The position numbers and the translations under genes are program-made. A stretch of DNA of 64,000 bases, taken from the NCBI GenBank assembly GCA_964371255.1, contig CAYJKV010000004.1:39613-103612 (forward strand), given 5' to 3'. The first letter of the stretch is position 1, and every line of letters starts with the position of its first letter. Positions 54,455 through 61,873 of this stretch are shown here, piece by piece. A model generated the notes under the pieces. It worked only from the letters and a program-made list of their open reading frames with translations. It did no database searches and was not told where the DNA came from. The DNA is from an uncultured Candidatus Saccharibacteria bacterium. GTDB taxonomy: Bacteria > Patescibacteriota > Andersenbacteria > UBA10190.

Positions 54455-54712
54455 ATGTCAAAGAAGTGGTGTGTATACATCGTTAGATGCAAGGACAAAA
54501 CTTTGTATACGGGATATACCAATGATTTAGAAAAGAGAGAATTATCACACAATAAGGGAATAGGGGCGAGGTATACCAGACAGAGGCGGCCGGTTCAGGT
54601 CATATATGTTGAGGAGTTTAGTAGTAAAGGAAAAGCTTTGAGTCGGGAATATGAAATAAAACAGATGACGAGAGAGGAAAAGGAAGAGTTAATCAGACGA
54701 AGCAACAGTTAA
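54455..54712 (+). CDS. GIY-YIG nuclease family protein (small UPF0213-type)
   Basis: WCVYIVRCKDKTLYTGYTNDLEKRELSHNKG...QVIYVEEF is the GIY-YIG signature. 85 aa. Confidence 0.8.
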   Translation: MSKKWCVYIVRCKDKTLYTGYTNDLEKRELSHNKGIGARYTRQRRPVQVIYVEEFSSKGKALSREYEIKQMTREEKEELIRRSNS

Positions 54713-54761
54713 TGACAGGGCAGGGTTTGACTTGGCCGGCAGTAAATAATAGCTTGGATAC

Positions 54762-54965
54762 ATGAATGGACAGAGAAGGGAAGATATTTATGCCGGGCTG
54801 ACAGTAGACATTGTCTTGAAACAAGACCAGCGAACAGGAAAGCTGACGCGTGGGGTTGTGCAGGATATTCTGACTAGCTCTTCATTTCACAGCCGAGGAA
54901 TCAAAGTGCGTCTGATAACCGGGGAGGTTGGCCGCGTGCAGAATATTTTGAGTGATAACGATTAA
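54762..54965 (+). CDS. YwbE/DUF2196 family small protein
   Basis: ...GLTVDIVLKQDQRTGKLTRGVVQDILT...HSRGIKVRLITGEVGRVQNI closely matches the conserved YwbE pattern. 67 aa. Confidence 0.6.
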   Translation: MNGQRREDIYAGLTVDIVLKQDQRTGKLTRGVVQDILTSSSFHSRGIKVRLITGEVGRVQNILSDND

Positions 54966-55040
54966 ATACTTCAGAGGAAGAAACGTTTTACAGTATATAT
55001 TTGACAGGCATTGGTGGATGTTATAGTGTAATTTACAAGG

Positions 55041-56930
55041 TTGTTTGTAACTAACACTATAATGAAATCACTATTTAGGTCGCAGTTAACATACAAAATC
55101 CTAAAATTTCTTAGCAGGAACCAGAAGTCGCACTATTTGGCGGAAATAGCCAGGAGCATTCAGTCCGATCCGGGTAACACCACAAAAGAATTAAAACGTT
55201 TAACTGAAGAGGGGTATTTGGTTCAGAGCGAAGAAAATGGCCGAAAATATTATGCATTAAGCGTTGACCTGCCGCATTTTAGTAAACTTGTCGGTTTATT
55301 AGAAAATGAGGCTGATCAAGAGTTCCAAAAATACTTTAGTATAGAGTGGATGCTGGGAGAGGACATTCCTAACATGACCCCATTTTTTAGCATGATCTGG
55401 CTAAATTGTTTTGTAGACGAGTTTGCCCAGCCAGGTGGCAAAGCTTATCGCAAGATTGCAGGAATCTACAAAGATTATCACTTATGGTTTTATTTCGAGA
55501 AAGAGAGTGCTAAGGAGGTCGCCAGCCACATTGTCAATCGTTTTGCGGCTGACCCTGACTTCATGACGCAAATCAACAAAGAGATTGTGGCTCATTCAGA
55601 TAAACTGCGTTCCTATTCCGAGACTATTCCGGAGACTGGATTGGAAAAGCTGTCGGCAAAGCAATTGTGGCAGATATTCAAACAGCATGAAGATATACAT
55701 ACAGCTTATTATCAGTGGGGATGGCTGCCGGTGGCGGCAGATATGTTTACTGATGAGTTGACGGAGAAAGGTAAAGTGGTTTTGCGCGAACACGGGGCTG
55801 GAGAAGATGAAGTGAATGAATATTTGGTGGTACTTACCCAACCGACCAAACCGTCGCTGATGAAACAAGAAGCTGATGAGCTTATTGATATCGCCTTGGA
55901 CGTGCAAAAGGACGAAAAACAAGCCGCTTTATTTTACGAGCTAATGCGGAAGTTCAAAGAGGACGAGGTTAAGGAGTTTGGGCTGTATACCCACAGCCCA
56001 CAATACGAAAAGGCTTTAGAAGAAAAGGTGCGGGAATTGATTAGTGAAATACCGCAAGATATATTGCAACGTTTACAAGAGCATCAGGCTAAGTATTTTT
56101 ACACTAGATTTCTTTTTACAGAGGAACAAGGCGTTTACAGTTTTGAGCATTATCTGAAGGGGTTGGTGCGTTTAGTTTGCCGAGGCGACGAGTTGCGACT
56201 AGAAAGAGAAAAGAGCAAATGGGAAATTAAAGTAGCTGAAAAAAAGAAAAAAGAGGTTAGTAGAACAATGCACCTTGAGTCCAAATGGATCACTTTCTTT
56301 GAAGAGTGGGGTGGCTTTATGGTGACGAAGATTTACCGCCGATATGCCCAGTTGTTTGCGCTGTCTAAAATGAGCGCTGTATTGGAAGAAATTGGCCGAC
56401 GACTAAGCTTACCGCAAAAGGAAGTTAGTTTTATGACCAGCGAAGAGATTGAAGCTGCTTTGCTTGGCAAGGCAATAGATAAAGATGTGATTAAGGCGCG
56501 GGTGCCGTTTTCTGTCTACTATGCTGATAAGGATACGCATAAGTTTTACATTGGCAGCGAAGCTAAACGTGCCGCAAAGCTTATTCAGAAAGAAGTGATT
56601 GAACAGGTTAATGAATTTACGGGGCAATGTGGCTGTCAGGGTTATGCTAAAGGCAAGGTTAAAATAGTTAATGTGGTGGCAGATATGAGTAAAGTAGTGC
56701 CGGGAGATATTTTGGTTTCCATATCAACACAGCCTGATCTATTACCGGCTATGAAAAAGGCAGCGGCATTTGTGACGGAACAAGGGGGGGTGACATCTCA
56801 TGCTGCGATTGTGGCGCGGGAGATGAATAAACCGTGTGTGATTGGCACAAAGATAGCAACCAAAGTTTTGAAAGATGGTATGGAAGTTGAAGTGGACGCA
56901 ACAAGGGGAAGGGTGACACTATTACAGTGA
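55041..56930 (+). CDS. winged-helix (ArsR/MarR-like) DNA-binding domain, a large middle domain and a C-terminal PEP-utilizer mobile (swivel phosphohistidine) domain
   Basis: N-terminus LTYKILKFLSRNQKSHYLAEIARSIQSDPGNTTKELKRLTEEGYLVQSEENGRKYYAL (wHTH). C-terminus ...GGVTSHAAIVAREMNKPCVIGT (PEP-utilizers His motif). 629 aa. It is the first gene of a five-gene coupled operon. Confidence 0.7.
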   Translation: MFVTNTIMKSLFRSQLTYKILKFLSRNQKSHYLAEIARSIQSDPGNTTKELKRLTEEGYLVQSEENGRKYYALSVDLPHFSKLVGLLENEADQEFQKYFSIEWMLGEDIPNMTPFFSMIWLNCFVDEFAQPGGKAYRKIAGIYKDYHLWFYFEKESAKEVASHIVNRFAADPDFMTQINKEIVAHSDKLRSYSETIPETGLEKLSAKQLWQIFKQHEDIHTAYYQWGWLPVAADMFTDELTEKGKVVLREHGAGEDEVNEYLVVLTQPTKPSLMKQEADELIDIALDVQKDEKQAALFYELMRKFKEDEVKEFGLYTHSPQYEKALEEKVRELISEIPQDILQRLQEHQAKYFYTRFLFTEEQGVYSFEHYLKGLVRLVCRGDELRLEREKSKWEIKVAEKKKKEVSRTMHLESKWITFFEEWGGFMVTKIYRRYAQLFALSKMSAVLEEIGRRLSLPQKEVSFMTSEEIEAALLGKAIDKDVIKARVPFSVYYADKDTHKFYIGSEAKRAAKLIQKEVIEQVNEFTGQCGCQGYAKGKVKIVNVVADMSKVVPGDILVSISTQPDLLPAMKKAAAFVTEQGGVTSHAAIVAREMNKPCVIGTKIATKVLKDGMEVEVDATRGRVTLLQ

Positions 56931-57877
56931 TGACCTACACCAAGACTTTCTCGGAAATATCAAAAAGCGATACGGCCATAGCCGGTGGCAAAGGGGCGTC
57001 ACTGGGCGAAATGACGCAAGCAGGCATTCAAGTGCCGCCTGGATTTGTGATTCTGGCACCCGCTTTTGATGAGTTTCTGAAAATTACTGACCTAAACGTG
57101 GAGCTGGATGCCATTTTGGACCAAGTGAACCATGAGGTAATGCACGAGGTGGATGACGCGTCAGAAAAGATTAAAGCCCTGATTTTGGGTAAAGAAATAC
57201 CGGCAAGTATGGCCAAGGAAATTATTTCTGCTTTCGATGAGTTAGACGCGGAATTCGTGGCTGTTCGTTCCAGTGCCACTTCTGAAGACTCCGCGGCGGC
57301 AGCGTGGGCGGGACAATTAGATACTTATCTCAATACGACCGAAGAAAATTTACTGGCCAATGTTAAAAAATGCTGGGCTTCGCTCTTTACGCCGCGGGCC
57401 ATTTTCTATCGTTTTGAAAAGGGATTACATGGGACACCAATTTCGGTCGCTGTCGTAGTCCAAAAAATGATCCAATCTGAAGTTTCAGGTATCGCTTTTT
57501 CGGTTCATCCTGTCACGCAAGATTACGACCAGCTAATTATTGAAGCTGGCTTCGGGTTGGGGGAGGCGATTGTCTCCGGCTCAGTTACACCAGACAGCTA
57601 TGTGATCGAAAAAAGCAGTTGGAAGTTACTCGATAAAAATATAACTACTCAAGAGCGGGGATTATTTCGTAAGGACGAAGGCGGCAATGATTGGCAAGAT
57701 ATTCCAACCACGAAAGGTGAGCAGCCGACGCTAACTGATGATGAAGTTATAGGCCTGGCAAAACTCATAGTTAAAATTGAGAGGCACTATGGTTTTCCCG
57801 TTGATGTTGAATGGGCACGAGAGAAGAATAGCTTTTATATCGTTCAAAGCCGTCCGATTACGACTCTGAATAAATAA
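56927..57877 (+). CDS. stand-alone PEP synthase/PPDK N-terminal ATP-grasp nucleotide-binding domain protein (PPDK_N)
   Basis: GGKGASLGEM...GIQVPPGFVI..., VAVRSSATSEDSAAAAWAGQLDTYLN and VVVQKMIQSEVSGIAFSVHP match the PEP synthase/rifampin phosphotransferase ATP-grasp domain. 316 aa, with no swivel or PEP-binding domain. ATGA overlap with the upstream gene. Confidence 0.8.
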   Translation: MMTYTKTFSEISKSDTAIAGGKGASLGEMTQAGIQVPPGFVILAPAFDEFLKITDLNVELDAILDQVNHEVMHEVDDASEKIKALILGKEIPASMAKEIISAFDELDAEFVAVRSSATSEDSAAAAWAGQLDTYLNTTEENLLANVKKCWASLFTPRAIFYRFEKGLHGTPISVAVVVQKMIQSEVSGIAFSVHPVTQDYDQLIIEAGFGLGEAIVSGSVTPDSYVIEKSSWKLLDKNITTQERGLFRKDEGGNDWQDIPTTKGEQPTLTDDEVIGLAKLIVKIERHYGFPVDVEWAREKNSFYIVQSRPITTLNK

Positions 57878-57890
57878 CGAAGAGAAAGTT

Positions 57891-59189
57891 ATGGCAGATA
57901 ACAAATGGCATTATCTTGGCAGATGGATTGAACCGGTATTGTCATGTGGTCTATGGTTGGAATGGAAAAACTTAACGGATGATATAGGACTTCATTTTAA
58001 AGGAGATATCGCCGTTTTGGATGGCTATCAGTATATTCTTAACGAAGATGTTAAAACAGCCAGTAAATTTTTGAATGACACAATCGTAAATAGCCCAGAA
58101 TGGTTTAATGTTTTTTTCAGACTTTGTGACGAGAAAATAGAGAAAGTATTATCGTTTAAGAATAAGAACGACCTGAGCGGCTTATTGATCGCTGCCACTA
58201 ATTCCTTGGGGCTAGTTACTATTCTGATAATGTTTGATATTGGGTATCAGAAATACATCAAAAAGATAGCGAAAAGACAAAACTTTGACGAAGAAGAATT
58301 TTTCTCTTTGGTCAAGCCGCATCGAAATACTTTGTTAATGGACTATATTCAGGAACTTAAGCAGCTGGATAAAAACAGTGAAGAGGCAAAAGAAAACTTT
58401 ATCAAGAAATATGGTTGGGTAGGAAAACATGTATTTCTGGGTGATGGTTTAACGCGTGAAAAGCTGGAACAGGAGCTGATTGATATTCCCAAACAAAAAA
58501 GTGCAAAAACCAAAGAAAGTATTAAGAAGTTGCCAAAAAAGTTGGCTGACCTATTGTCCCTTGGAAACAAGTTCGCTTTTTACCGCTCTTATATAGTTGA
58601 GTGCACCAATAGTGTCGTCTATGAGTACTGCCCAATTGTTAAAGAACTTGGCGAAAAGCGTGGCTTAATTTGGGATGATGTTTTACTTTTAGATTATCAG
58701 GAGGTTATTGACTTAAATGAGAAAAATGAAAAGCCTCACAATTTCGAGAAAAGGAGAAATGGCTACGGGAAAATAATAAAAGACGGCAAGAAAGTTATTG
58801 TCACGGGTGCCAGTTTAGAGAAGGAATTGAACAGGTTTCGGGAAAAAGTTGATAAAGATGTAAAAGAGATAAAAGGAATGGTTGCCTCTAAGGGGGGTAT
58901 CATTATAGGCATTGTGAGGGTTGTAGAGGAGTCGGCAATAATTTCCAAAATGAAGGAGGGTGATATCTTGGTGGCTAACGAGACTACTCCAGATTACGTT
59001 GTGGGCATGAAAATTGCTGGGGCTATTATAACCAATCAAGGAGGTATAACTTCTCACGCCGCAATTACCAGCAGGGAAATGGGTATTCCTTGTATAATCG
59101 GGACGAAAATCGCCACCCAAATTCTCAAAGACGGAGATTTGGTGGAAGTGGATGCAGAGAAGGGGATTGTGAGGAAGATTAATGGCTGA
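57891..59189 (+). CDS. PEP-utilizer mobile (swivel) domain protein with a unique N-terminal domain (paralog 2)
   Basis: C-terminus ...GDILVANETTPDYVVGMKIAGAIITNQGGITSHAAITSREMGIPCIIGTKIATQILKDGDLVEVDAEKGIVRKI. The roughly 320 aa N-terminal region is unrelated to known domains. Confidence 0.75.
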   Translation: MADNKWHYLGRWIEPVLSCGLWLEWKNLTDDIGLHFKGDIAVLDGYQYILNEDVKTASKFLNDTIVNSPEWFNVFFRLCDEKIEKVLSFKNKNDLSGLLIAATNSLGLVTILIMFDIGYQKYIKKIAKRQNFDEEEFFSLVKPHRNTLLMDYIQELKQLDKNSEEAKENFIKKYGWVGKHVFLGDGLTREKLEQELIDIPKQKSAKTKESIKKLPKKLADLLSLGNKFAFYRSYIVECTNSVVYEYCPIVKELGEKRGLIWDDVLLLDYQEVIDLNEKNEKPHNFEKRRNGYGKIIKDGKKVIVTGASLEKELNRFREKVDKDVKEIKGMVASKGGIIIGIVRVVEESAIISKMKEGDILVANETTPDYVVGMKIAGAIITNQGGITSHAAITSREMGIPCIIGTKIATQILKDGDLVEVDAEKGIVRKING

Positions 59190-59200
59190 CAAAGAAGGTT

Positions 59201-60253
59201 ATGGATATTAATAGTTTTGAGAGATCAGACTGGAATCAAATATGGGCAGGCGATTGGAGTTTGCTCTCCTGTTCGCAATTTGGCGAGCAGTACACGAAAA
59301 CTCTTATCGTCAATGGTAAAGTGTTTATGTCCCAAACTGTTCTTATGATTGAGGATGGTAAGAGCGCTGGCTTTATGACGCAGGCTGACAAAGACGCCTT
59401 TGGTAAGCATTTAGCCCAGGAGGTTGTTGATAATCCCAGCCGTGTCCAAGAAATTGCGGCTAATTTTAAACGACAGGTTGATTTGACGATGGAGTTGATG
59501 AATAAGTATAAAACCAGTGAAATCACCAAAGAAATTTACGAAGCTTTCTGGGAGCGCATACTGGAATACTACAAACCGCATGTGAATGTTAAGTATATTG
59601 TTGATTATCTTGATCCAGAACTGTTGAAAAAATATTTACCGGAGCTGGAAGAAGCACGGGTGTACGCTGAGCCTGTTTTCAAGCACTCGGAAGAATTTAT
59701 GCAGGCTATGGCGCAGCAACAAGGGGCTAAAATTGGTTATCCCACTGAACTAATATTGTGCTTGTTGATAGAAGAACTGCCATCGCTATGGAAGAGCGAA
59801 GCATTGCCAGCACAAGTAGTATTGCGACAGAGATATGATAGAAGTGCGTTGTTAGTTGATCTGTCTGATCAGTTGCTTTGCGTTGGTGATGAGGTGAGCG
59901 AGATTGATCAGTTTATCCATGGAGCGACGGAAGATGAAGTAATCAAAGGAGCAACAGCGTACCCAGGGCACGCGAAAGGAACCGTGCGAATTATCTTTGA
60001 TCCGACTAAAGCTGATCATTTTCAGAATGGCGACATTTTAGTAACTCACATGACGCGGCCGGAATACTTACTGATTATGAAAAAGGCTGCGGCTATCGTG
60101 ACTGAGGCTGGCGGCATATTGTCGCATGCGGCCATCACGTCACGCGAATTAAAAAAGCCGTGTGTGATAGGGACGAATAAGGCTACCAAGATATTGAAAG
60201 ATGGAGACCTGGTTGAGGTAGATGCGGATAAAGGGATTGTGAGGAAAATATGA
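59201..60253 (+). CDS. PEP-utilizer mobile (swivel) domain protein with a unique N-terminal domain (paralog 3)
   Basis: C-terminus ...GDILVTHMTRPEYLLIMKKAAAIVTEAGGILSHAAITSRELKKPCVIGTNKATKILKDGDLVEVDADKGIVRKI. Confidence 0.75.
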   Translation: MDINSFERSDWNQIWAGDWSLLSCSQFGEQYTKTLIVNGKVFMSQTVLMIEDGKSAGFMTQADKDAFGKHLAQEVVDNPSRVQEIAANFKRQVDLTMELMNKYKTSEITKEIYEAFWERILEYYKPHVNVKYIVDYLDPELLKKYLPELEEARVYAEPVFKHSEEFMQAMAQQQGAKIGYPTELILCLLIEELPSLWKSEALPAQVVLRQRYDRSALLVDLSDQLLCVGDEVSEIDQFIHGATEDEVIKGATAYPGHAKGTVRIIFDPTKADHFQNGDILVTHMTRPEYLLIMKKAAAIVTEAGGILSHAAITSRELKKPCVIGTNKATKILKDGDLVEVDADKGIVRKI

Positions 60254-61353
60254 AGAAGGATGGGAGTAATATTGCTGCTCGTATTAAGGAATTGAAACTG
60301 AAGCCAGGACTGCGCCGGGACATTTCGCTCTTTGGGGAAAGTTGTATAGCGCTCGGCTATACTCGAAATCTAAAGGAATTAACTGGTTTCGGCGTAAGTG
60401 CCTTTGGGGGGATAAGTATCGAGAATCAATATTTATCATTAATTGATGTTGAGGATTTATCCAGAAAGGTTGATATTTATTTAAGTCAACTTGGATCGGA
60501 AAGTTTAATTGGGGGAGAGCTAGATCGATTTTATACTCGATACAAGCATGAGCGTCAAGTATATGAGAAGATTTGGGCGGCTTACCAGGCTCGGAAGCCG
60601 GAGGATTATCTTAGGAAAATTGTGAGTTTATATCCTGACCATGCGGCGACGGTCGGGTTTTACAACAGCTTAATGCGTTATTTGGGAGAGGAAGAAAGCA
60701 AGGGACAATTGTCACCAAAGCTGGTAAGCCGCATAGGAATGGAGAGAAACGAAGTAGCTGGTCTTTATCCGAAAATCGAAAGGATATTAAAGTTATTGGC
60801 GGAGAAATTTTCAGAGACGGAGGGGGAGGTAGGGGAGATGATCAGGTTTTGTTTACGAGGCGAGATTCAGCAATGGTTAGAGAGTGGCGAGTTAGCAGGA
60901 GAAACTGAACTTGGAGAGCGGCAGCGGCAATACGTTCACTTGCGGATAGCGGAGTCTGATGAAGAATTATTATCCACTGACAACGGGGATTATGTAGCAA
61001 TAAAGGAGTGGTTATTTGGGAATCAATCAAATTCGACGGGAGTTATCCGAGGCGTGGGAGCATTTCCAGGCAAAAGATCAGGTGTGGTGTATAAGGGAGA
61101 CAAGACGGTTATTTCGGTGCCTACATATGATTTTATATTGGTAGCGGTGCAGACGCATCCTGATTGGGTACCATTAATCAAAAGAGCCAAAGCGATAGTG
61201 ACTGATGAGGGGGGTCGCTTATGTCATGCGGCTATAACAGCGCGGGAACTTAAGGTTCCTTGTGTCATTGGCACCAAAATGGCCACGCAAATTCTAAAAG
61301 ACGGTGATCTAGTGGAAGTGGATGCAGCGAAGGGGATAGTGAGAAAAATATGA
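60250..61353 (+). CDS. PEP-utilizer mobile (swivel) domain protein with a unique N-terminal domain (paralog 4)
   Basis: C-terminus ...HPDWVPLIKRAKAIVTDEGGRLCHAAITARELKVPCVIGTKMATQILKDGDLVEVDAAKGIVRKI. ATGA overlap with the upstream gene. Confidence 0.75.
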   Translation: MKKDGSNIAARIKELKLKPGLRRDISLFGESCIALGYTRNLKELTGFGVSAFGGISIENQYLSLIDVEDLSRKVDIYLSQLGSESLIGGELDRFYTRYKHERQVYEKIWAAYQARKPEDYLRKIVSLYPDHAATVGFYNSLMRYLGEEESKGQLSPKLVSRIGMERNEVAGLYPKIERILKLLAEKFSETEGEVGEMIRFCLRGEIQQWLESGELAGETELGERQRQYVHLRIAESDEELLSTDNGDYVAIKEWLFGNQSNSTGVIRGVGAFPGKRSGVVYKGDKTVISVPTYDFILVAVQTHPDWVPLIKRAKAIVTDEGGRLCHAAITARELKVPCVIGTKMATQILKDGDLVEVDAAKGIVRKI

Positions 61354-61612: not shown

Positions 61613-61702
61613 AGCATAAAACTTAGCGTGTCGGGATTGGCTAAGTCGCCTTGTTTAATGACAGATGGCTGTTATGGTGGTGGGGATAAGGAGGTGACTA
61701 TT

Positions 61703-61873
61703 ATGCATTATGTATGTCCAGAGTGCGGCGGTGTCGCAGACCACAAGAAGGTATGTGAGACGTCCGGGTGCAGCAGGGAAGGGCATGAAATGATGGAATG
61801 CGATTGCACGGATAACAAACATGAAGGGGTTTTAGAAGCTGCTAACAATAAGGAAAAGAAGGAAGAAGAGTAG
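61703..61873 (+). CDS. small zinc-ribbon protein (hypothetical)
   Basis: SD aaggagg 8 nt before ATG 61703. MHYVCPECGGV...CETSGCSREGHEMMECDC has paired Cys motifs and a Lys/Glu-rich tail. Confidence 0.45.
   Translation: MHYVCPECGGVADHKKVCETSGCSREGHEMMECDCTDNKHEGVLEAANNKEKKEEE

Follow-up and report, generated by a model that had tools for sequence, protein, structure and literature searches.

An operon of five genes (g1 to g5), all of which are intact, tightly coupled and encoded on the forward strand, is found in a 64,000-nt stretch of DNA (the whole stretch analysed, referred to as the window) from a host that is probably an ultrasmall (CPR) bacterium. Depending on the start codon of g1, the open reading frames extend from position 55041 or 55062 to 61353. 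The features of the operon are as follows, with X denoting the domain that precedes the swivel domain and RPH standing for rifampin phosphotransferase:

55021..55062, forward strand: imperfect 18-nt inverted repeat, TTATAGTGTAATTTACAA / TTGTAACTAACACTATAA, ending at the g1 start codon
55062..56930, forward strand: g1, 622 aa, winged helix, X and swivel; alternative TTG start at 55041
55062-55331, forward strand: predicted ArsR/MarR-like winged helix of g1 (residues ~1-90)
55338-56642, forward strand: RPH-like substrate-binding domain X of g1 (residues ~93-527)
56643-56927, forward strand: phosphohistidine swivel domain of g1 (PF00391), His580 codon at 56799-56801
56930..57877, forward strand: g2, 315 aa, ATP-grasp subunit consisting of PPDK_N (PF01326) alone
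57891..59189, forward strand: g3, 432 aa, X at 57891-58901 and swivel at 58902-59186, His389 codon at 59055-59057
59201..60253, forward strand: g4, 350 aa, compact X at 59201-59965 and swivel at 59966-60250, His309 codon at 60125-60127
60250..61353, forward strand: g5, 367 aa, X at 60250-61065 and swivel at 61066-61350, His326 codon at 61225-61227

The start codon of g1 is most likely the ATG at 55062 rather than the TTG at 55041, because it is selected by gene callers and shared by orthologues, and that of g2 is most likely the ATG at 56930. With the latter start, g1 and g2 overlap by 1 nt at a TGATG junction, and the ATGA overlap that an initial annotation had placed at 56927 is lost, whereas the one at 60250 was found at the g4/g5 junction. 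Genes g2 and g3 are separated by 13 nt and g3 and g4 by 11 nt, in line with the original description of five co-directional genes with tiny or overlapping junctions. Identical proteins are encoded in the same order on at least 23 metagenomic contigs, each of which was assembled independently. A domain search of the rest of the 64,000-nt window revealed no other swivel or ATP-grasp domains. Genes for pyruvate kinase, iPGM and enolase are located directly upstream of the operon.

Domain composition of the encoded proteins

The C-termini of g1, g3, g4 and g5 match PF00391 with E-values of 2e-26 to 5e-25 (1.8e-26 for g1, 2e-26 for g3 and 5.3e-25 for g5), and all four proteins retain the catalytic motif GG-x-x-[SC]-H-A-A-I, which bears out the earlier reading that they end in a conserved PEP-utilizer swivel domain. 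The swivels share 49-59% pairwise identity and the X domains roughly 22-26% in forced global alignments. The C-terminal tails are identical in peptide sequence, but the underlying DNA is just 61-84% identical and differs at synonymous sites, which argues for selection rather than recent gene conversion; this conservation pattern fits selection for docking to one partner. Conserved surface motifs are common to all four swivels. For both the ATP-grasp and the swivels, archaeal PEP synthase (8a8e) has the most similar sequence.

The second gene had been annotated as an ATP-grasp domain alone, and indeed, g2 matches PF01326 (PPDK_N) over residues 18-315 (E-value 1.6e-95) and possesses no other domain. 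PPDK_N is likewise the sole Pfam domain in all 120 of the best g2 homologues listed, most of which are about 315 aa long. The PDB matches of g2 are archaeal PEP synthase (251 bits), the ATP-grasp of RPH (213 bits) and 9goj (205 bits). The motifs GGKG, RSSAT, DTY, DxEW and QSRP are all kept in the alignment, and so are the ATP-site residues: K21, R113 and T132 of g2 align with K22, R117 and T136 of RPH (alignment to 5FBS), which have nucleotide- or phosphate-positioning roles in the RPH ATP site (PMC4844700). g2 is presumed to be the ATP-binding component that charges the histidines of the swivels.

The N-terminal regions of the four swivel proteins had initially been regarded as mutually unrelated; this view is contradicted by blastp, X-only HMM-HMM comparisons and the AF2 folds of g1 and g4. 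Profile and fold comparisons identify at least three of the X domains, those of g1, g3 and g4, as divergent homologues of the rifampin-binding domain of RPH, and in these proteins the helical RPH-type domain directly precedes the swivel. The proposal that the order of variable domain and swivel corresponds to RPH with the ATP-grasp removed is thereby supported. The g1-family profile matches residues 495-866 of RPH (E ~5e-35) and the g3-family profile residues 558-867 (E 5e-27). No profile match begins before RPH residue 495, and conservation of the N-terminal part of the domain, which contacts rifampin in RPH, was not detected. The top six Foldseek matches of the g1 AF2 model (pLDDT 87.8) are all RPH-Lm, and the g4 model also matches the RPH substrate-binding domain in a fold search. 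Furthermore, the NCBIfam RedH model matches residues 241-430 of g3. Two known domains had been considered for the N-terminal regions, of which the rifampin-binding-like one was found in g1, g3 and g4 and the PEP-binding TIM barrel was not: none of the five proteins matches PEP-utilizers_C (PF02896) at E <= 0.1.

Comparison of the paralogues with blastp gave 38-40% identity over 183 aa for g1-g4 and g3-g4 and 34% over 280 aa for g4-g5, in each case with the swivel included. When the X domains were compared by hhalign, g1 and g3 aligned over 265 columns (probability 93%) and g4 and g5 over 68 columns (probability 92.5%), and the match between g1 and g4 was confined to the last ~70 columns. Family-profile comparison revealed no direct likeness of the g5 X domain to RPH outside the swivel, as the g5-family profile meets RPH only at residues 745-866; it would thus be linked to the RPH domain only via g4. 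Of the four X domains, this one is the least well characterised. HMMER places the K-x-x-R-K motif of the g1 family on R666-E-Y-P-K670 of RPH, with a different register in MAFFT, which aligns Y-R-S-Y of g3 with Y-R-E-Y of RPH and places g1 and g4 elsewhere, so that the register is ambiguous between the two programs. An Arg is invariant in the g1 family (R426) and in the g4 family (R153), and g5 may lack the Arg of the RPH R666-E667-x-x-K670 block. Each paralogue has its own conserved family of full-length orthologues; those of g1 with ~625 aa are 50-58% identical, and the 80 loci described below yielded only two orthologues of g5.

In addition, g1 carries a predicted N-terminal winged helix, which the initial annotation had assigned to one of the proteins. 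Residues ~1-90 of its AF2 model superpose on MepR, AntR, ZitR and SqrR (Foldseek; TMt 0.5-0.68), and the Pfam matches of this region (EarA, MarR and HTH_IclR) are weak and all below gathering scores. The region is thus predicted to be an ArsR/MarR-like winged helix with a putative function in DNA binding. Some sources label g1 orthologues as ArsR-family or wHTH proteins, and orthologues of ~535 aa lack the winged helix. The inverted repeat at 55021..55062 is a candidate operator for the winged helix of g1, or a candidate leader hairpin; no similar sequence was found upstream of three orthologues.

One ATP-grasp and several modules in CPR and DPANN genomes

The 20-kb loci around g2 homologues were surveyed in 80 CPR and DPANN species genomes. 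Exactly one ATP-grasp is present in every locus (80/80), and it is accompanied by 0-7 modules, which are either separate genes or fused, with at least two modules in 43 and at least four in 22 of the 80 loci. The combination of a stand-alone PPDK_N protein with multiple swivel modules, whose recurrence in other genomes the initial annotation had left to a neighbourhood survey, is therefore a recurrent one, and this one-to-many layout occurs unannotated across CPR bacteria and DPANN archaea. Nearly all genes are co-directional (226/227). The ATP-grasp is fused to a module in 24 of the 80 loci, and polyproteins with 2-7 swivels, mostly behind an ATP-grasp and free of N runs, are found in ten; the fused form AG-(X-swivel)n reaches a length of more than 3,600 aa. 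These fusions and multi-module polypeptides provide a Rosetta-stone argument for one ATP-grasp acting with several modules. Together with the pattern of the 80 loci, they give strong comparative support to the prediction that a single ATP-grasp serves several swivel proteins.

The X domains are highly diversified, with 191 modules falling into 80 clusters. Module content turns over fast, even among relatives whose ATP-grasp is 75-80% identical to g2, and individual module types are conserved between phyla and between domains of life, with identities of 40-58%. Related clusters also contain interspersed genes of the His_Phos_1 type (phosphatases), the family to which the phosphohistidine phosphatase SixA belongs. 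Two loci contain modules remote from any ATP-grasp, namely an orphan g1-type gene without an ATP-grasp within 10 kb (L091) and six modules in a locus from which the ATP-grasp is absent (L092); it is thus possible that some modules act by themselves or receive phosphate from a different donor. No conserved non-dikinase neighbour hinting at a pathway was found around the related loci.

Relation to known dikinases

The initial annotation knew of no described system with this architecture. This does not apply to the split itself, since HpeHI, CreHI and PpsAB are biochemically characterised two-component 1:1 dikinases (PMC12167813), but the literature searched yielded no one-to-many arrangement, no wHTH-fused member and no polyprotein forms. 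As in the operon, the two components are encoded by separate adjacent genes: HpeI, CreI and PpsB are stand-alone ATP-grasp proteins, and HpeH, CreH and PpsA carry a swivel His domain at the C-terminus and, ahead of it, a substrate-binding domain resembling that of RPH. His581 in the swivel of HpeH is essential, the products are of the AMP type and the HpeHI complex is transient; HpeH alone can move phosphate from 4-phosphoacetophenone to acetovanillone (PMC12167813). HpeH, CreH and PpsA, which were compared here by published description, share ~45% pairwise identity among themselves. They form 1:1 pairs, whereas four modules per ATP-grasp are found here and up to seven in relatives, and most modules of the operon are smaller (350-432 aa versus ~640 aa). 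Moreover, the known pairs act on phenolics in the aromatic catabolism of free-living bacteria, while the hosts of the systems described here are CPR bacteria and DPANN archaea, and the winged-helix module and the multi-module polyproteins of relatives set this group further apart. NCBIfam PRK08296-type models match the swivel part only, far below cut-off.

RPH-Lm (PDB 5HV1, 5FBS), which among solved structures is nearest in fold to g1 and g4, possesses the same three domain types in the same order, but it is one polypeptide with a single substrate domain, whose rifampin-contacting N-terminal part is not detectable here. An ATP-grasp, a central domain and a swivel are also found in the prodiginine ligases PigC, RedH and HapC, and the similarity of g3 and g4 to the RedH and PigC models covers the C-terminal ~120-190 residues of these models, with all scores falling well short of the family cut-offs; unlike the operon products, these ligases are single polypeptides, in which phosphorylation drives condensation. 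PEP synthase and PPDK differ in that their TIM barrel is missing here and the swivel follows an RPH-like helical domain; the scores for their NCBIfam equivalog models are all far below cut-off.

Proposed function and alternative explanations

Taken together, the five genes probably specify a small-molecule dikinase that is split and multi-headed and belongs to the RPH and PpsAB-CreHI-HpeHI family, with dikinase chemistry and trans-charging as predicted properties. g2 would bind ATP and pass the beta-phosphate to the conserved histidine of a swivel, thereby releasing AMP and Pi. The phosphorylated swivel would then swing back to the X domain of its own polypeptide (g1, g3, g4 or g5), where the phosphate would be transferred to a hydroxyl or enol group of the bound ligand. 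Since the X domains have diverged strongly and the four swivels have remained similar, one ATP-charging subunit would serve four acceptor specificities in trans, and each module presumably has a separate, distinct small-molecule substrate. The winged helix of g1 may tie ligand or phosphorylation state to transcription, possibly via the inverted repeat at its own start.

The same dikinase chemistry could also serve an array in which each module inactivates a different antimicrobial of hosts or neighbours, as RPH does. Among solved structures, RPH comes closest to g1 and g4, diverged RPH clades have been proposed to act on other small molecules (PMC4844700), and fast module turnover and X diversity are typical of accessory or defensive functions. 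However, the part of RPH that contacts rifampin is not detectably conserved, an identity of 40-58% across phyla and domains is more suggestive of housekeeping than of an arms race, and the intercalated phosphatases would reverse inactivation, which makes such an array unlikely. Another alternative is a signalling or regulatory phosphorelay, which would transfer phosphate from the histidine to proteins rather than to metabolites, or control the module itself, for instance DNA binding by g1. The predicted winged helix of g1, the inverted repeat adjoining its start codon and the intercalated His_Phos_1-type genes speak for this idea. In PTS enzyme I, a swivel domain hands phosphate to proteins. 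We nevertheless consider a phosphorelay quite improbable, as only one of four modules has a predicted DNA-binding domain, which is missing from the ~535-aa orthologues, the X folds are those of small-molecule-binding domains and no HPr-like or receiver partner was found in the operon.

It is also conceivable that only the adjacent pair uses the ATP-grasp in a 1:1 manner as in HpeHI and that the other modules are ATP-grasp-independent phosphotransferases, which act between phospho-metabolites or use PEP or another donor. The activity of HpeH alone (PMC12167813) and the orphan modules and module clusters without an ATP-grasp within 10 kb are in favour of this idea, but it appears very improbable in view of natural polyproteins that set 2-7 modules behind a single ATP-grasp, of the surface motifs shared by all four swivels and of the lack of an alternative donor domain such as a PEP-binding TIM barrel. 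That the genes are the remains of a degraded or frameshifted PEP synthase or PPDK, or the product of faulty assembly, is next to impossible, even though PEP synthase is the best NCBIfam match of the ATP-grasp and the swivels and glycolytic genes lie just upstream. That neighbourhood is not kept, as only one of the 80 loci has a related gene close to the ATP-grasp; PEP-utilizers_C is absent from every frame product, there are four swivels instead of one and each reading frame has full-length orthologues, which occur in many genomes. The identical proteins on at least 23 independent contigs refute both a frameshift and an artefact, in agreement with the initial view that the genes are not one ordinary enzyme in pieces.

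If the operon is a split dikinase as proposed, high-driving-force phosphorylation could serve genome-reduced symbionts in trapping or activating scavenged metabolites, although this role is speculative. A more far-reaching and tentative idea, which is possible but rather doubtful, is that of an inter-domain-transferred phosphorylation hub of CPR and DPANN organisms, in which one ATP-grasp would charge a changeable set of 1-7 modules, encoded separately or strung together in one polyprotein. The diversified RPH-like domain of each module would capture its own compound, a metabolite scavenged from the host or a precursor of the envelope, and the wHTH module would link phosphoryl flux to transcription. 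If true, the hub would in function be a soluble, ATP-powered analogue of the logic of the PTS, in which one enzyme I serves many substrates.

Organization and integrity of the operon

The operon region of the window is made up of five ORFs, all of which point in the same direction; that the five genes are coupled, as noted in the initial annotation, is a real observation and lies well above chance.

Genes of the operon (positions in the window)
55062-56930, + strand: g1, 622 aa (629 aa from an upstream TTG at 55041); region X and swivel
56930-57877, + strand: g2, 315 aa; stand-alone ATP-grasp protein
57891-59189, + strand: g3, 432 aa; region X and swivel
59201-60253, + strand: g4, 350 aa; region X and swivel
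60250-61353, + strand: g5, 367 aa; region X and swivel

The start codons ATG 55062 of g1 and ATG 56930 of g2 are the choice of the public-assembly gene callers and of orthologue alignments. With these starts, the g1/g2 junction is a TGATG with a 1-nt overlap rather than the ATGA overlap initially described; it is followed by gaps of 13 nt and 11 nt and by the 4-nt ATGA overlap between g4 and g5 at 60250, which had been read correctly. Terminator-like sites within the five-gene block are not more frequent than in shuffled sequence. Pfam searches confirmed that four of the proteins end in a phosphohistidine swivel (PF00391, PEP-utilizers; E 2e-26 to 5e-25 in g1, g3, g4 and g5) and that PPDK_N (PF01326, E 1.6e-95) is the sole domain of g2. 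No further swivel or ATP-grasp domain was found elsewhere in the 64-kb window. Neither of two objections considered at the outset, a PEP synthase or PPDK split by frameshifts and a His motif that is not conserved, holds. Each of the four module proteins retains a complete GGxx[SC]HAAI motif (His580 in g1, His389 in g3, His309 in g4 and His326 in g5). A frameshifted, fragmented or degraded PEP synthase is excluded by the absence of the PEP-binding TIM barrel PF02896 from all five proteins, the presence of four swivels, the full-length orthologues and the occurrence of all five proteins, identical and in unchanged order, on 23 or more metagenome contigs that were assembled independently, which excludes both frameshifts and misassembly.

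Kinship with rifampin phosphotransferase

The ATP-grasp protein g2 resembles three structures to about the same degree: the ATP-grasp domain of an archaeal PEP synthase (8a8e, 251 bits), that of the rifampin phosphotransferase RPH (213 bits) and the PDB chain 9goj (387 residues, 205 bits). In an alignment to RPH, K21, R113 and T132 of g2 correspond to K22, R117 and T136, for which mutagenesis has shown a role in positioning ATP (PMC4844700), and the DxEW and QSRP motifs are likewise kept in g2. All of the best 120 g2 homologues listed contain PPDK_N as their sole Pfam domain; they are mostly around 315 aa long and 65-83% identical, and the few among them with a source name belong to Patescibacteria, Nanoarchaeota and Woesearchaeota. 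The ATP-grasp copies of archaeal loci (L015, L026, L033, L040, L061 and L077, from DPANN or Bathyarchaeia MAGs) are 56-68% identical to g2, which matches the identity between CPR phyla and suggests that genes were transferred between the two domains.

The regions preceding the swivels, here referred to as X, had been regarded as mutually unrelated, a view that did not hold. The four swivels share 49-59% identity with one another, and the X regions roughly 22-26% when global alignment is forced. With the swivel included in the alignment, blastp links g4 to g5 (34% over 280 aa) and both g1 and g3 to g4 (38-40% over 183 aa). HMM-HMM comparisons from which the swivel was removed connect g1 X with g3 X (93% probability over 265 columns), and the final approximately 70 columns of g4 X with those of g1 X (94%) and g5 X (92.5%). 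Searches of the PDB with family profiles led to RPH-Lm, matching residues 495-866 for g1 (E ~5e-35), 558-867 for g3 (E 5e-27), 700-866 for g4 and 745-866 for g5; of the affinities proposed for the N-terminal regions, the rifampin-binding-like one was thus recovered, but the TIM barrel was not. AlphaFold2 modelled g4 with very high confidence (pLDDT 96.3, pTM 0.92), and its model of g1 (pLDDT 87.8, pTM 0.80) has RPH-Lm as its six top Foldseek matches (E 6e-13 to 6e-11, TM 0.43-0.48 on the query). In both models, X starts with the same order of elements, namely strand, helix, beta-hairpin and then helices. Based on profile matches and predicted fold, the "large unknown domain" of g1 is a variant RPH substrate-binding domain. 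The RPH-like assignment is least secure for g5 X, since it is linked through g4 only. At the RPH block R666-E667-x-x-K670, the register is ambiguous: HMMER places K-x-x-R-K of the g1 family there, whereas MAFFT shifts g1 and sets YRSY of g3 against YREY of RPH. With the same ambiguity of register, g5 may lack the Arg of this catalytic block.

The predicted winged helix of g1 and the surroundings of the operon

Residues ~1-90 of the g1 model superpose on the ArsR/MarR-type winged-helix regulators MepR, AntR, ZitR and SqrR, and g1 may thus bind DNA. An 18-nt inverted repeat (window 55021-55062; 89% complementary, 6-nt spacer), which contains the palindrome TGTAA-T-TTACA, terminates exactly at the ATG of g1; ~20 nt upstream there is a TTGACA hexamer. 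The repeat is a candidate operator, to which the winged helix of g1 would bind, or else may form a leader hairpin. A conserved operator was rejected, as three g1 orthologues have upstream inverted repeats, none of which shares sequence with that of the window. An anti-phage defence system was likewise rejected, as PADLOC yields generic wHTH matches to g1 and nothing else.

The interval from enolase to the operon (54455-54966) contains two short reading frames that some assemblies call, a GIY-YIG gene of 85 aa and a DUF2196 ORF of 67 aa. Just downstream of g5, a Cys-rich ORF of 81 aa that contains CxxC motifs is located at 61628-61873, and public assemblies call a small PF02594 (PF1765-like) gene between the two. 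On the + strand, which carries nearly all long ORFs of the window, 2-kb windows show a strongly positive GC skew from end to end (0.19-0.35, down to 0.06-0.12 at 42-50 kb). No tRNA genes or Rfam matches were found in the whole 64-kb window.

One ATP-grasp protein and several substrate modules

Species-representative genomes were scanned for related loci, and the 80 loci returned, which by record title derive from CPR lineages and DPANN archaea, with some titles reading Gammaproteobacteria or Bdellovibrionales, were searched with HMMs derived from the swivels and the ATP-grasp of the window. The arrangement of a stand-alone PPDK_N protein with several swivel paralogs recurs: each of the 80 loci contains exactly one ATP-grasp gene, accompanied by zero to seven modules (several of the zero cases look contig-truncated), with two or more modules in 43 loci and four or more in 22. 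Nearly all genes (226/227) are co-directional with the ATP-grasp. The latter stands alone in 56 loci and is fused to a module in 24, giving RPH-like proteins of 660-850 aa, and in 10/80 loci two to seven modules are joined in a single ORF. In one Woesearchaeota MAG (L015:10001-16654), a 2,217-aa polyprotein has the order ATP-grasp-(X-swivel)4; in another (L033:9995-20933), one ATP-grasp and seven X-swivel modules are encoded by one ORF that exceeds 3,646 aa and runs past the end of the locus. No masked bases are present in these and the other polyprotein ORFs. The polyproteins provide Rosetta-stone evidence that one ATP-grasp would work with several modules. In L015, a remnant of the ATP-grasp C-terminus, ~25 aa long (GSPCDIELAKEKGKSSIVQSRPRTT, compared with GFPCDIEWAKEKGKFYIVQSRPITT in the intact domain), trails each of the internal swivels, three of the four, which suggests that modules arose by duplication of whole ATP-grasp-X-swivel units followed by loss of the ATP-grasp.

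At E 1e-20, the 191 X domains separate into 80 clusters, yet at E 1e-5 one component unites 167 of them, including all four types of the window. Every paralogue of the window belongs to a separate conserved family of orthologues: proteins of the g4 type (~350 aa, 40-55% identical) occur in both CPR and DPANN, and g1-type wHTH-X-swivel proteins (~625 aa, 50-58% identical) are accompanied by ~535-aa forms without the winged helix. A search with g4 X alone over 1.84 billion representatives matched just 259 clusters, a small number of which lie within fusion proteins of 680-2,648 aa. Two loci with an ATP-grasp close to g2, L093 (80% identical; three to four modules with LMWPc and NUDIX genes) and L094 (75% identical; six modules), have unrelated genomic surroundings, and since such close relatives differ in their module sets, module content must turn over quickly. 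No conserved non-dikinase neighbour points to a pathway; the top family, found in 12/80 loci, is a generic ABC ATPase. A functional link to the upstream pyruvate kinase, iPGM and enolase genes was rejected as a conserved feature, since only one of the 80 loci has a glycolytic gene (iPGM) close to the ATP-grasp.

The split as such is already known, since it has been established biochemically for HpeHI, CreHI and the phenylphosphate synthase PpsAB (PMC12167813). Like the window, these systems combine a stand-alone ATP-grasp polypeptide with an RPH-like substrate domain and swivel on the other; however, they are 1:1 pairs, whereas in the window one ATP-grasp is found with four modules. RPH, a member of a wide superfamily of presumed small-molecule dikinases, carries ATP-grasp, rifampin-binding domain and swivel His in this order on a single chain (PMC4844700), whereas g2 is separate from the X-swivel proteins. 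In HpeHI, the swivel His is essential, the main product is AMP and the complex is transient, and HpeH alone exchanges phosphate between substrates (PMC12167813). The claim that no system of this architecture has been described therefore stands for the one-to-many layout but not for the split: no description of a CPR/DPANN multi-module dikinase was found in the literature searched, in which coverage of subscription journals is thin, so that absence is no proof.

By homology with RPH and HpeHI, g2 would bind ATP and pass the beta-phosphate to the swivel His, thereby producing AMP and Pi; the charged swivel would then swing back onto its own X domain and phosphorylate the substrate bound there, which presumably differs between the four modules. 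The C-terminal peptides of the four swivels are near-identical, yet the encoding DNA is merely 61-84% identical with synonymous differences, which rules out gene conversion. These peptides are under purifying selection, as expected if all four dock on one partner. The initial annotation, in which one ATP-grasp would charge all modules, seems largely right as to mechanism, and we consider it fairly probable that the operon encodes a multi-headed, shared-ATP-grasp dikinase of a kind that is widespread and unannotated in CPR and DPANN genomes.

An RPH-like resistance array would share this mechanism and differ in role alone; it would fit the fast module turnover, but is unlikely given how deeply the individual module types are conserved and given the phosphatases in related clusters. 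Phosphatase-type genes occur within or beside such clusters (L053:8978-9862(-), L054:16931-17824, L086:3801-4403, L031:15127-15591(-) and L061:9399-9992; also L092 and L093); loci with such a gene inside the cluster are in the minority. By clustering, ~15 loci have His_Phos_1-like genes, with marginal Pfam support; HAD genes are found in six loci, LMW-PTP in three and L093, and HD in three and L092. The window's own cluster contains none. Intercalated phosphatases could reset His~P or act on products, and are a lead only. A regulatory phosphorelay, hinted at by the winged helix of g1 and by the inverted repeat at its start, is a slightly poorer prospect given that three of the four modules have no winged-helix domain. 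There is also a slim chance that g2 forms a 1:1 pair with one module and the others act independently of an ATP-grasp. The exchange activity of HpeH would allow this, and orphan modules exist: on a contig of 1.03 Mb from Patescibacteria (L091:10001-11878), a lone g1-type wHTH-X-swivel gene has glycosyltransferase and queuosine genes as neighbours, with no ATP-grasp found within 10 kb, and L092:1-11878 comprises six swivel-module genes, one HD and one His_Phos_1 gene, with no ATP-grasp found in the 22-kb locus. The polyproteins, however, speak against such independence.

CPR and DPANN genomes are roughly 1 Mb in size and contain few recognisable biosynthetic or salvage enzymes, and many of them spend 5-11 kb on the dikinase system. 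Current databases label these genes "PEP-utilizing enzyme" or "pyruvate, water dikinase" and nothing more, and counting them as PEP synthase would lead metabolic reconstructions to wrongly infer gluconeogenic capacity. The compact modules, some of just 350 aa and confidently modelled, would be attractive for finding new phosphorylation chemistries. Should many substrate modules indeed depend on one ATP-grasp, the system would be the first dikinase with a one-to-many layout; it would be a natural case in which subunits are shared combinatorially within the PEP-synthase/RPH superfamily, and would open a route to metabolites that these symbionts take from their hosts.
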